64,000 bases of DNA, from positions 5,815 to 69,814 of the forward strand of contig JAURDW010000001.1 in NCBI GenBank assembly GCA_030827745.1, in the 5' to 3' direction. Both the position numbers and the translations under genes were made by a program. The notes under the pieces were generated by a model. The model made no database searches. It was not told where the DNA came from and was given only the letters and a program-made list of their open reading frames with translations. Source of the stretch: Poseidonia sp. GTDB lineage: Archaea; Thermoplasmatota; Poseidoniia; Poseidoniales; Poseidoniaceae. Shown piece by piece: positions 1,627 to 6,799 of this stretch. Position 1 is the first letter of the stretch. Each line of letters begins with the position of its first letter.

Positions 1627-3855
1627 ATGAGCGAGGGTGACCAAAACGAAGGTGCGGTTGCCAGTCGCACCGACGAATTGGCCCAGCTCATCGCTCACCA
1701 CTCCCACCTCTACTACAACCTGGCCGAACCCGAACTCAGCGACGCTGAATTTGACCGCTTGTGGGACGAACTGAAAACGCTCGATCCTGAACACCCTCAA
1801 TTGCGACGGGTCGGTGCGGATGTGCCTCCTGGAAGCGTCAAAGTGGACCATCTCTTTCCGATGCGAAGTTTGGACAAAGCCACCACCGACGAGGAGTTGA
1901 CGCATTTCGTCAACGTGACCACCGGCGGCGCCGTTCGCTTTCTTTCTCAGCCGAAGTTGGACGGCTCAGCGCTTTCCCTTGAATACCGCATGGGGCGACT
2001 TGTTCGGGCCGCCACGCGCGGGAGCGGTGAGCGGGGCGAAGACGTCACGCGAAATGCGCTGAAAGTGGCCAACGTGCCTCACACGCTTCCGCTCCCGGTC
2101 GATGTCCATGTTCGGGGTGAAGTCGTGATGCCGCTGGCTGTCTTTGACACCAAATACCGACATACTTCGCCCAACCCGCGCAACCTCGCAGCGGGTGCCT
2201 TGCGGCAAAAGCACGCCGACGGGAAAGCCGATGCGGCTGACTTGGTGTTTCAGGCCTACGATGCGAAAATCCCACCGGCAACTCAACGCCATCCCGATAG
2301 CCAAACGGTTCCCGAAATGGCCAACGACACCGAGATGCTGACCTGGATGGAAGACCGGTTGGGCATCGTGCCAGCCCCATGGGAGGTCCATGAGGGGGCC
2401 ACACCCTCAGAAGCAGCGCAACATTTGCAACAAGCGACGGTGAAGTGGACCGGCAAGCGAAGCGCCTACGCCTTCGAAATCGACGGCGTGGTGTTCAAAC
2501 TCGACGGGTTGGAGCATCGAGAACGCTTGGGCATGACCGCCCACCACCCTCGGTGGGCCCTGGCATGGAAGTTCCCTCCTGAAGAGGCCACTTCGGTTCT
2601 CTTGGCGGTTGAATGGCAGACGGGTCGAACCGGCAACATCACGCCCGTTGCCCGCATCGCTCCCCAACGAGTGGGCGGCGTCACCGTTGAGAACACCACC
2701 CTGCACAACCTTGGCGAGGTGCAACGTCTCGGTGTCCGCCTTGGCGATAAGGTGCTCATCGTCCGCCGAGGCGACGTGATTCCGAAGATTGAATCCTCCT
2801 TGGGACGAGCCTCCTCAAGCGATTTGGAAGGCAGGTTTCATGCCTCAGGTGAACCGTTTGCGGCGTCCCTGCCTCCGGCAAGCGGCATTCCAGCACCGGA
2901 GGTGTGCCCAGCATGTCAAGGCGAAATTGAGGCCGAAGGGGCCTTCCTCAAATGCCTCAATCTGGATTGCGATGCCCGAACCAGCCGAGCCGTCCTCTAC
3001 TGGTGCCGTGCACTTGAACTGGACGGGATTGGAGAAAAATTGGTTGACCAGTTGCTCGAAGCAAACCTCATCGCTTCGTGTGCAGACCTTTACCGGCTCA
3101 CGCTTCACGAGCTTCTCGATTTGGAGCGCATGGGTGAGAAATCGGCGACCAATGTGCTCTCTGAGGTTGAGAAAGCACGAACCATGACCTTGGGTCGTTT
3201 CCTTCATGCCCTTGGCCTCCCGGGTATCGGTCCCGAGTTGGCCACGGCGATGGCCCGTTCAGTGGGCGACACAGAGGGTTTGATGACATGGCTCGAACGC
3301 GCTCATTCAGAAGTCGGTGACCCTGCTTTTGGCCCGGAGAACGACGATGCAGGAAAACCTCATGCCCACAACGCCGCGCTTCGGGAGGTGCTTGCTGTGG
3401 ACGGCGTCGGTGAAATTGTGGCCCTTCAGTTTCGCGACGGACTGGCTCGCCGTCGAACGCTGCTTGAGGACCTTCTGACGCTGATCAACGTCCAGCCCGA
3501 ACCGGTCTTGGCGGGTGGAGGTCCGTTCGAGGGCATGACGTTTTGCGTGACGGGGACCCTTTCAGCCCCCCGAAAGGATGTTCAACAGCGAATCATCGAT
3601 GCGGGGGGAAAAATTGTCGGGAGCGTCTCCGCAAAACTCTCGGTCTTGGTTGCTGGAGAGAAAGCGGGATCAAAACTTGCCAAAGCCAACGAATTGGGTT
3701 TGGCTGTTTGGACGGAAGCCGCTCTTGCAACGGCCCTTGATGGCGGGTGGCAGGAAGCCATCGAATCCGTGAGTGACAACGGCGGTGCCGAAGACCGAGA
3801 GGGCGGGCCAAACACGCAACGGTCACTGAGCGACTTTTCTTCCCATCAGCCGTAG
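1627..3855 (+). CDS. ligA: NAD+-dependent DNA ligase (LigA family) with a C-terminal BRCT domain.
   Basis: N-terminal Ia domain ([29 protein letters not shown]), adenylation KxDG motif (QPKLDGSAL), and LigA-type motifs [19 protein letters not shown] and [14 protein letters not shown] 4-Cys zinc finger (CPACQG...CLNLDC), HhH region, and BRCT (FCVTGTLS...[18 protein letters not shown]) follow. Confidence 0.9.
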
Positions 3856-4643
3856 AGCATGGCGTTCGTCGCCGCACCGCCCTCGCTGGCGGTTGACGGG
3901 TCGAGCAAGGCTTTGAGTTGCGCTTCGAGCATTTCGGCTTCCTCCAGAAGGGGTTCTTCGGGAAGTTCCATCGGTAGAAGCACGTTCAGACGCTCGATGA
4001 TGGCGGCGGCGGCACGAGCATCGGGGAACCTGGGGTCGGCTTCCACCATGATGGACATCGTTCCAAGACCACGACGAGAGGCTTCACTCAAAATACCGGC
4101 GTTCATTCCCCGAATAACGCCGTTTTCCAGCAAGGGGACGTCCATCTTCTTCAGCATCGCCCGGACGGTCTCGTTGCAACCGATGCCCACCACATCGATG
4201 GCTTCGGTGTCTTCGTATTCCACCATGGGGTCAACGCCGTCCATGTTGGATTTCATTCCGGCCTTTGCAAAGGCGTCGACGACGACGCCTGCCAGCACTT
4301 TGTGCTCCTTGGACCATTCAAAGAGTTCCCATACGATCTTGTGAACCAGCGTTTCGGGCACGACCATTTCGCTCATGAGGAGGATGACTTGGTCGCACCC
4401 GTCAATCGTGCATTGCGGTTTTCCAGCGTAGGCACGGATGGGGGGCAAAGGAACACCTTGTTGAATCAACGCCAAAGCCGGCAGGCGGTCGTCCACCAAG
4501 CCGCCAACGAATTCCAACTCAAGATGGTCAATGAGGTAGTGGGCGACGATGCTGGAGACCATGCCGACGCTCGGGAAGCATGCCACCACCATCGCATTCT
4601 CGGTTTGAATATCGGTGTTGATGCGGAGGCTCGGAGAATCCAT
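3846..4643 (-). CDS. PAC2-family protein (archaeal proteasome-assembly-chaperone-like).
   Basis: 265 aa with a typical PAC2 layout: N-terminal [30 protein letters not shown], mid GMNAGIL, and an acidic C-terminus. Its 3' end overlaps the ligA 3' end by 10 nt (convergent). Confidence 0.65.
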
Positions 4644-4727
4644 GTCCTCGGGACTCGCCTCTTCCGCTTCAAGACTTCCCCTTGTCCATCACCAAACCTT
4701 CTTGATGCTGAACGCGAAGCCAGCACC

Positions 4728-5903: not shown

Positions 5904-5929
5904 GGAAGAACGGGCGGTCGGCCACGAAT

Positions 5930-6799
5930 TCACCCAAGACGGAGGTGAGACCGGAGGGCGTCTTTGGCTTCCTCGCACTCCAATCCGTTCGGGGAGAGCA
6001 GCCACGAAATGTAACTCGGGTCGTTGCCTTGAATTTCAAGGACGCTTCGCCCTCGGTGGCGGCCGAACGAGAGAATGTAATGCTCTCCATCGATCCGAAC
6101 TTTTCCCAAATCGTCCAACGGTTCGAGGTCGTTGAGCCCTCGCCCCAACGCCGAAGCGTCGCTTGCACCGTCCCCGTGGACGGCCCAACGTTCCAATTCG
6201 GGAAGGGAACGCCGGAACGCAGGCGCGTGGTCTACCGAGAGACGCCAGAAAAGAAGCATTGTGGCTGCGGCGTCGGCCGCAGCGGTGTGGGCCGCGTCCA
6301 AGCGTATTCCGTGGCGCCGGCACAACGCACCAAGGTTGTGCGGGCGAGGCAAGCGCAACCGGCGAACGAGTTCCAAGGTGTCCATGATGGCCTTTGGCTC
6401 GGGGGCAAGTTTGCCGAGACGCAAGAATTCGTTCTTGAGCATGGCGTAATCGAATTTCCGAACATTATGACCCACCAAGACGGCGCCATCGATCAGTTCA
6501 GCCACCTCGTCGGCCACTTCGGCGAATTTCGGTTTCCCTCGCACATCTTGGTTGTAAATACCGTGGATGCGGCTCGCATCAAGTGGAATGGACACCCCAG
6601 GGTTCACCACCCGTTCCACGTTCACAGCCGTACCGTCGGCAAGCGTCCCAATCAGCGCCAACTGGACAATGCGGTCGTTGTTGGTGGAGACGCCGGTGGT
6701 CTCCAAATCAAAAGCCAACACCTTTTCTCCGTGAAAGAGGTCTTGGGCCATGGCCTTTGAACAGCCGACACCCTCTTTCAACATCACTCCTAAACCCAA
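5930..6799 (-). CDS. ExoX-like DEDDh 3'-5' exonuclease (DnaQ fold) fused to a C-terminal DUF3820-like domain.
   Basis: Exo I motif VLAFDLETTG, Exo II VGHNVRKFDYAML, Exo III HTAAADAAATMLLF. The C-terminal FGRHRGRSVLEI...PSYISWLL matches the DUF3820 pattern. The true start may be the internal Met at about 6751 (MAQDLF). Confidence 0.75.
   Translation of the reverse strand: MGLGVMLKEGVGCSKAMAQDLFHGEKVLAFDLETTGVSTNNDRIVQLALIGTLADGTAVNVERVVNPGVSIPLDASRIHGIYNQDVRGKPKFAEVADEVAELIDGAVLVGHNVRKFDYAMLKNEFLRLGKLAPEPKAIMDTLELVRRLRLPRPHNLGALCRRHGIRLDAAHTAAADAAATMLLFWRLSVDHAPAFRRSLPELERWAVHGDGASDASALGRGLNDLEPLDDLGKVRIDGEHYILSFGRHRGRSVLEIQGNDPSYISWLLSPNGLECEEAKDALRSHLRLG

Follow-up and report, generated by a model that had tools for sequence, protein, structure and literature searches.

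A nuclease of 391 amino acids, in which a four-cysteine PD-(D/E)XK domain is followed by a C-terminal domain with a predicted OB fold, is encoded at positions 4728-5903 (plus strand) of a 64 kb stretch of Poseidonia sp. DNA (contig JAURDW010000001.1; the whole stretch, as analysed here, is called the window). This order-specific fusion of an AddB/AdnB/Cas4-type nuclease to an OB fold without sequence relatives is the new element of the region of interest (1627-6799), in which four genes were recognised by open reading frame (ORF) listing and profile scans, encoding the NAD-dependent DNA ligase LigA, a PAC2-family protein, the nuclease and a DEDDh exonuclease. An initial annotation of this DNA had described the region as a cluster of DNA end-processing enzymes; our analysis points instead to three DNA enzymes which are probably independently transcribed housekeeping genes, lying in an old synteny block together with unrelated genes. 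The host belongs to the Poseidoniales (Marine Group II, MG-II), which are among the most abundant archaea of the surface ocean, but to our knowledge no Marine Group II archaeon has been cultured and so replication and repair in this group can be inferred only from genomes.

The nuclease domain is of the AddB/AdnB/Cas4/Dna2 type

The nuclease gene was assigned the start codon ATG at 4728 and not the GTG at 4302 of a longer ORF (a 142-codon extension), as its homologues begin at the equivalent of 4728. Residues 12-277 (4761-5558, plus strand) match PF12705 (PDDEXK_1) over model positions 1-247 of 247 with an E-value of 2e-19 and 70.9 bits, compared to a gathering cut-off of 22, and this was the only Pfam match. 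In an alignment of 21 homologues (62-91% identity) C24, C266, C270, C276, D164, D183, K185, Q201 and Y205 are invariant, a combination that marks the AddB/Cas4/Dna2 type and places the protein in the AddB/AdnB/Cas4/Dna2 type of nucleases. D164 lies in GRLDLL, D183 and K185 lie in ADLKTG and the QxxxY motif occupies residues 201-205. All of the motif strings picked out in the initial annotation are present, namely YETCPRMYWL (CPRMYW from C24), VADLKTG (DLKTG from D183), QLRMY (201-205) and CGGFCDWKAWC (266-276), and the alignment across the four cysteines and the D/E-K catalytic residues, which that annotation had named as the point on which its assignment turned, holds throughout the 21 homologues.

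Assignment of the nuclease to the Cas4 family, as first proposed, did not survive closer comparison. The Cas4 profiles PF01930 and TIGR00372 gave no match in Pfam or NCBIfam at E ≤ 0.01 (across NCBIfam there were zero matches to any model), and the nearest solved folds are those of AdnB and AddB. By sequence the closest solved protein is the mycobacterial AdnB nuclease domain (6ppu_A, E = 0.01, with GRLD...DLKTG...QLxxY aligned), followed by a Cas4 (E = 0.36). An AlphaFold2 model of the full nuclease, built from the homologue alignment (mean pLDDT 86.8, pTM 0.76), was compared with the PDB using Foldseek and matched AdnB 6ppu_A best (E = 9.1e-07, 23% identity over 261 columns), then AddB (E = 1.2e-05), mouse Dna2 (5eax, E = 1.5e-05), which gave the widest coverage (432 columns, TMq 0.46), the Argonaute-associated ACE1 (E ~1e-4), MGME1 (E = 3e-4 and weaker), Cas4 SSO0001 (E ~1e-3) and RecE (E = 1.9e-03). 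The best viral fold matches were RecB-family and Cas4-like phage exonucleases (BFVD, E down to 1.6e-09).

These fold matches might suggest that the nuclease is a stand-alone Cas4-like defence enzyme, acting against viruses independently of CRISPR and with the DEDDh exonuclease as its partner; the four-cysteine RecB-like architecture is that of Cas4, Foldseek returned Cas4 SSO0001, Cas4-Cas1 complexes and ACE1 (E ~1e-4), and a PADLOC search gave a weak DruK match for the nuclease (2.9e-10) and matches to DEDDh (cas-associated) and PDC-S48 for the exonuclease. We consider this very improbable. Besides the silence of the Cas4 profiles, the PADLOC matches cover generic catalytic domains only, and a defence role was set aside for that reason; no CRISPR array is present, with no tandem or spaced direct repeats across the 64 kb; no Cas family was found among the window ORFs scanned with profiles; and neither cas genes (none within 8 kb on either side of the nuclease in the loci L081-L085) nor other defence genes lie nearby. 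The initial annotation was thus correct that there were no cas genes or CRISPR in the vicinity, and the adjacent cas genes which would have made the protein an ordinary CRISPR-associated Cas4 were looked for without success.

The distribution of the nuclease also differs from that of a variable defence island. It is encoded by one gene at the same core chromosomal site in all 80 of the species-representative Poseidoniales loci compared, and in three divergent lineages as well, and no relatives were found among the viral contigs of IMG/VR, so that a viral origin was rejected. This constant chromosomal site, together with the lack of IMG/VR relatives and of CRISPR/cas genes, points to a housekeeping rather than a mobile nuclease. 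When 1.84 billion representative proteins were searched with a profile, 174 matches were found at E ≤ 1e-3, of which nearly all to about E = 1e-10 are fragments of the same nuclease family; full-length members with the C-terminal domain amount to a handful of clusters, the two-domain form was found only in this family, and every named member is from the Poseidoniales (metagenome-assembled genomes labelled Poseidonia, Poseidoniaceae or Poseidoniales). Next in line (E = 1e-10 to 1e-4) come PDDEXK_1 proteins from bacteria, 250-320 amino acids long and lacking the C-terminal domain. The papers searched make no mention of this nuclease.

The C-terminal extension is predicted to be an OB fold

The initial annotation had noted a 130 amino acid C-terminal extension; the extension is real, but beyond the Pfam match it comprises residues 278-391, which is 114 amino acids, and it is conserved as strongly as the catalytic domain. 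Within it the AlphaFold2 model and fold matches place an OB-fold domain at approximately residues 290-380 (5595-5867, plus strand), and a model of the C-terminal domain alone (pLDDT 86.6) had the same topology as in the full-length model. DSSP applied to the models assigned strands at 294-304, 310-318 and 325-336, a helix at 338-349 and strands at 356-362, 368-370 and 375-378, and the resulting order of beta1-3, helix, beta4-5 is the OB topology. The top PDB folds for this domain are all OB folds (HIN, Teb1 OB-B, PriB, SSB and ribosomal S17). By sequence, the domain alone gave no Pfam match at E ≤ 10 and a single chance-level PDB match (E = 1.3). The extension is confidently predicted to be an OB fold, one with no detectable sequence relatives. 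Candidate stand-alone OB proteins (P0183, P0223, P0243, P0228 and P0197, short matches covering residues 290-386) look like frameshifted or partial pieces of the nuclease family and were not retained.

From the published structural work on Dna2 and AddB, in which an Fe-S cluster staples the terminal extensions of the nuclease domain, so that the catalytic channel is closed over by a loop and becomes a tunnel (PMC4716839), a mode of action can be proposed by analogy. The four cysteines would bind a [4Fe-4S] cluster tying the N-terminal to the C-terminal extension, and the metal site formed by D164 and D183-x-K185 may lie in a tunnel or groove which accepts a free single-stranded DNA end, this requirement for a free single-stranded end being taken from the Dna2 and AddB analogy. 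Such an enzyme would trim or cleave single-stranded tails or flaps, with a polarity that is not predictable. The order-specific OB fold would either hold the single strand or dock a partner protein; its invariant aromatic and basic residues (F294, F336, R339, K341, W368, W373 and W379) would suit single-strand binding.

LigA and the exonuclease are ordinary enzymes

LigA (1627-3855, plus strand, 742 amino acids) scored 524 bits against the TIGR00575 equivalog model (cut-off 444.45) and 522 bits against NF005932 (cut-off 369), and carries the Pfam domains Nlig-Ia, DNA_ligase_aden, DNA_ligase_OB, HHH_5 and BRCT, an adenylation lysine (K110, within KLDG), zinc finger cysteines (C427, C430, C443 and C448) and an acidic C-terminal tail. 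Among proteins of known structure it is closest to E. coli LigA (2owo, E = 6.8e-102). Against NF010931, which we take to be the model for haloarchaeal-type LigA, it scored 377 bits, far under the cut-off of 1051. From its sequence the protein would be a complete bacterial-type NAD-dependent nick-sealing ligase, as the initial annotation had recognised. In Table 3 of Borrel et al. 2014 (PMC4153887) MG-II is entered with an NAD ligase acquired by bacterial transfer and without an ATP-dependent ligase, and Raymann et al. 2014 (PMC3914693) give the wider background, so a bacterial-type LigA in MG-II has been in the literature since 2014 and is not new. As the archaeal ATP-dependent ligase is recorded as absent from MG-II, LigA is most likely the replicative and repair ligase of these archaea.

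Immediately upstream of LigA (47 bp, same strand) lies a pair of genes overlapping by 4 bp (555-1579, plus strand), which encode a 185 amino acid protein without a Pfam match and a PCC/DUF296-domain protein. The PCC-LigA adjacency is kept in 58 of the 80 loci (those showing both genes) and also in L082 and L084, and therefore LigA may be co-transcribed with the upstream 185 amino acid and PCC genes.

The fourth gene of the region (5930-6799, minus strand) encodes a DnaQ-like DEDDh 3'-5' exonuclease with a maximal ORF of 289 amino acids, within which translation probably begins at an internal ATG (6784 or 6751). It matched PF00929 (RNase_T) with an E-value of 7.7e-31 and 108.3 bits (cut-off 24) and TIGR00573 with 90.4 bits (cut-off 71.5), and its DEDDh residues are D31, E33, D117, H171 and D176. 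The initial annotation had called it ExoX-like, which is accurate for the DEDDh identity and for the tail but not for the core. Residues 243-268 (5996-6073, minus strand; FGRHRG...YISWLL) match ExoX-like_C, PF20600, with an E-value of 1.7e-08 and 34.1 bits (cut-off 26.5), and four divergent orthologues reach 17-23 bits, under this cut-off; the tail is probably a partner-binding peptide. The score against the ExoX equivalog NF005937 was only 41.9 bits compared to a cut-off of 202, there was no ExoX among the PDB sequence matches at E ≤ 1e-5, and the closest solved cores are those of PolC-exo, DinG-exo and epsilon (E ~1e-11 to 1e-12). The epsilon models were likewise under their cut-offs (TIGR01406, 92.2 compared to 222.7; NF005927, 107.8 compared to 186). 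Within its very large family the exonuclease is unremarkable.

Between LigA and the nuclease lies a gene which the initial annotation did not mention and which does not encode a DNA enzyme; this is the PAC2-family proteasome assembly chaperone homologue (3846-4643, minus strand, 265 amino acids; PF09754, 5.9e-32).

Synteny accounts for the gene order no less well than shared function

LigA and PAC2 converge, with the 3' end of the PAC2 gene overlapping the LigA stop codon, PAC2 and the nuclease diverge (84 bp apart), and the nuclease and exonuclease converge, as had been noted in the initial annotation, across a 26 bp gap. The three DNA enzymes thus lie in three transcription units, the nuclease being alone on the plus strand and the exonuclease alone on the minus strand. 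Across the 80 loci the broadly conserved order is hyp185-PCC-LigA ... PAC2(-)-nuclease(+)-exonuclease(-)-acidic ORF-PKD-orf120-orf92-HAD, and as PCC, PAC2, PKD and HAD genes are kept in the same order the background synteny is high and takes in genes unconnected with DNA. One contig bearing the whole PAC2-nuclease-exonuclease-PKD-HAD block at 75-86% identity is labelled 'Verrucomicrobiales bacterium ARS100' (L021, NZEQ01000040.1) and is almost certainly a mis-binned Poseidoniales contig.

The most constant junction is that of PAC2 and the nuclease, with a gap of 84-116 bp in 80 of 80 loci and the same adjacent, divergent arrangement in L081 (173 bp) and L091 (136 bp); in the divergent loci PAC2(-) is present wherever the contig reaches (the 2 kb contig of P0123 begins at the nuclease). 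This constancy could be taken to tie the nuclease functionally to PAC2 through a shared promoter region, possibly in a proteasome-linked role, but that explanation is hardly to be credited: we know of no mechanistic tie between the two families, a divergent intergenic region as short as this is not easily broken up by rearrangement, PAC2 is not among the neighbours of two distant bacterial relatives of the nuclease, and a second PAC2 paralogue of the window (17572-18330, plus strand; PF09754, 2.3e-32), which lies 13 kb from the nuclease-adjacent PAC2, has no adjoining nuclease. In actinobacteria a RecB-family nuclease is kept near PAC2 and proteasome genes, but this lead was dropped, as P0207 and P0271, the two contexts sampled, have no PAC2 neighbour.

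LigA is clearly separable from the rest of the block: it abuts PAC2 in 43 loci, and in 29 of 72 a three-gene insert of 4.4 kb lies between them. In the one annotated locus with this insert (L082, 3121-7133) the three genes encode an 806 amino acid Reeler/PKD protein, a 361 amino acid protein without a Pfam match and a 169 amino acid membrane protein with weak likeness to DUF2231.

Nuclease and exonuclease are separated by no more than 150 bp in 57 of 70 loci, by 150-1000 bp in 9 and by 1.4-4.3 kb in 4; no exonuclease lies within 8 kb in L051 or in L079, the latter having haem-biosynthesis genes downstream of the nuclease. The nuclease(+)/DEDDh(-) pair is kept in the divergent family members P0126, P0125 and P0123 and in the loci of P0083 and P0110, and at three of these (P0083, P0110 and P0125) the two genes overlap at their 3' ends by 13-26 bp. 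The two distant bacterial relatives (P0207 and P0271) have neither PAC2, exonuclease nor ligase as neighbours. The adjacency of the two nuclease genes is therefore old but breakable, and is indistinguishable from general synteny.

In the genera of approximately 70% identity (L045-L080), in which the nuclease gene ends at about 9140 in locus coordinates, the nuclease-exonuclease gap is a variable spot with inserts of 0.2-4.3 kb; the insert examined in L073 holds small unannotated ORFs and one gene for a GAF protein. Several contigs (L046, L057, L059, L061, L064 and L069) end 0.8-1.8 kb after the nuclease, suggesting that the region following this gene breaks assemblies.

A closer partnership has been considered, which would make the region a true end-processing cluster as in the initial annotation. 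The OB-fused nuclease would act jointly with the DEDDh exonuclease as a two-nuclease module, for instance by trimming single strands in opposite directions at breaks, gaps or flaps, and LigA would use their products. MGIIa-like loci, other loci at 62-66% identity and three divergent lineages all retain the convergent pair, whose 3' ends often overlap; the short gap in 57 of 70 loci is in keeping with such a module, and LigA falls within the block wherever a locus extends far enough for this to be seen. The unrelated PAC2, PKD, PCC and HAD genes are kept in the same order, however, so that background synteny accounts for this pattern; in 13 loci the two nuclease genes are parted by unrelated genes and the exonuclease is missing from the neighbourhood in L079 and L051; the surface/membrane-gene insert splits LigA off in 29 of 72; the opposite strands of the genes make co-transcription impossible; and the distant bacterial relatives have no exonuclease or ligase alongside. 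We regard such a module as possible but unlikely, and prefer independently transcribed housekeeping genes in an old synteny block as the explanation; synteny explains the grouping of the genes no less well than shared function does. The description of the region as a cluster of DNA end-processing enzymes therefore holds for the adjacency and the conserved order of the genes, but not for any unit implied by it, given the separate transcription units, the unrelated genes within the block and the frequent displacement of LigA.

Some observations weigh against this preferred interpretation, or against parts of it. The convergent nuclease-exonuclease pair persists in every divergent lineage sampled, which could reflect a functional link. 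The absence of an ATP-dependent ligase is taken from one table, published in 2014 and based on one MG-II assembly. The Fe-S cluster and the nuclease activity are read from motifs and a predicted structure. The OB fold matches are weak (E = 3e-3 to 7e-2, TM 0.4-0.5), the domain is acidic (isoelectric point 4.7), and the OB domain of Dna2 binds RPA and not DNA (PMC4716839), and for these three reasons DNA binding by the OB domain is uncertain.

A separate AddAB-like operon and other features of the window

The window also contains an AddAB-like operon 30 kb away from the nuclease (35700-44530), as had been stated in the initial annotation. The AddB/AdnB-like subunit (35700-39617, plus strand, 1305 amino acids; PF12705, 3.9e-13) has a four-cysteine PD-(D/E)XK domain at its C-terminus (C937, C1285, C1288 and C1294), and its stop codon is overlapped by the ATG of the gene for an AddA/AdnA-like UvrD helicase-nuclease (ATGA; 39614-44530, plus strand, approximately 1638 amino acids; UvrD-helicase, 3.9e-31, UvrD_C, and PDDEXK_1, 1.8e-09), the nuclease-domain cysteines of which are C1362, C1688, C1691 and C1701 when numbered on a longer 1711 amino acid ORF from 39395. 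Both subunits are unusually long. The mycobacterial AdnAB complex likewise has a four-cysteine nuclease domain in each subunit. AddAB or AdnAB of Poseidoniales, and archaeal AddAB in general, are not described in the papers searched.

The nuclease and the two operon subunits had been proposed to carry three paralogous Cas4/AddB-type domains. The four-cysteine motif is indeed present in all three, but it is shared at superfamily level only and they are not recent paralogues: pairwise and profile comparisons aligned 19-49 residues around the motifs (E = 0.001-0.12), with BLASTP giving 19-49 residues at E = 0.007-0.12 and hhalign 26-37 columns at a probability of 2-22%. A common origin of the three domains was tried as a proposition and not taken further, as motif-only alignments allow no meaningful tree.

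The rest of the window is ordinary archaeal chromosome, with genes for MCM, GatE, Trm1, the second PAC2 paralogue, metabolic enzymes and large surface proteins; an Rfam scan found one tRNA gene (tRNA-Arg) and nothing else. Among the proteins that are probably large surface proteins are a 1454 amino acid FG-GAP repeat protein (13151-17515, plus strand) and the product of a giant ORF without a Pfam match (57299-64000, minus strand), of at least 2233 amino acids, which runs off the end of the window. A 660 amino acid protein (50599-52581, plus strand) has an EF-hand pair at its C-terminus, and a 2022 survey (PMC9258230) reported calcium-binding domains specific to subgroups of Poseidoniales. Several long ORFs lie antisense to or upstream of real genes (4302-4727 and 5828-6760, plus strand; 7071-8063, minus strand), a 310 amino acid ORF antisense to the exonuclease gene being one of these spurious-looking ORFs, and they were taken as by-products of the GC content of the window (58%) and not as genes.

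Significance and comparison with known systems

What is new here is a core, single-copy and strongly conserved nuclease whose named members are all from Poseidoniales. If it truly trims flaps or DNA ends, it would account for part of the repair toolkit of Poseidoniales, and it would be the second Fe-S nuclease to use an OB module, after Dna2. As a cluster the region carries little weight, because joint action of its three genes is not demonstrated. A broader and rather unlikely picture, offered as speculation, is that end processing in Poseidoniales has been rebuilt from bacterial-type parts (LigA replacing the ATP-dependent ligase, an AdnAB-like helicase-nuclease bearing two Fe-S nuclease domains, and a DnaQ/ExoX-like exonuclease), with the OB-fused nuclease as a helicase-less analogue of Dna2 or AdnB that would thread single-stranded flaps or tails and be paired with the convergently encoded 3'-5' exonuclease.

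Compared to bacterial LigA and haloarchaeal LigN, the Poseidoniales LigA has the complete domain set and an equivalog score above the cut-off, but is approximately 70 amino acids longer, owing to insertions and the acidic tail. The exonuclease has its DEDDh catalytic domain in common with both E. coli ExoX and Pol III epsilon (DnaQ), though only its tail is ExoX-like and its core is nearer to PolC, DinG and epsilon.

The nearest sequence relatives of the nuclease outside its own family are the COG2887-type 'RecB family exonucleases' of bacteria and phages, which lack the C-terminal OB domain and lie in unrelated gene contexts. With the nuclease domains of AdnB and AddB it shares the PF12705 fold, one N-terminal and three C-terminal cysteines and the GRLD...DLKTG...QxxxY motifs, but it is a stand-alone protein without a helicase or helicase-like domain, its cysteine spacing is CX3CX5C and not CX2CX5C, it has an OB fold at the C-terminus where AdnB and AddB have none, and it is not in an operon with AddA/AdnA, the AddAB-like operon being separate. 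Like the Cas4 proteins SSO0001 and Pcal_0546 it is a small PD-(D/E)XK nuclease with the same cysteine topology (folds 4ic1, 7mi5 and 8d3l, E = 1e-3 to 5e-3), but it is approximately 180 amino acids longer, with helical inserts as well as the OB domain, and is found outside any cas/CRISPR neighbourhood. Unlike Dna2 it has no SF1B helicase, and the match to Dna2, at a root mean square deviation of 17 Å, does not imply an equivalent domain arrangement; in Dna2 the OB domain is at the N-terminus and the nuclease is followed by a separate beta barrel (PMC4716839). In both proteins, small modules of the beta-barrel or OB kind are packed against a four-cysteine PD-(D/E)XK nuclease.

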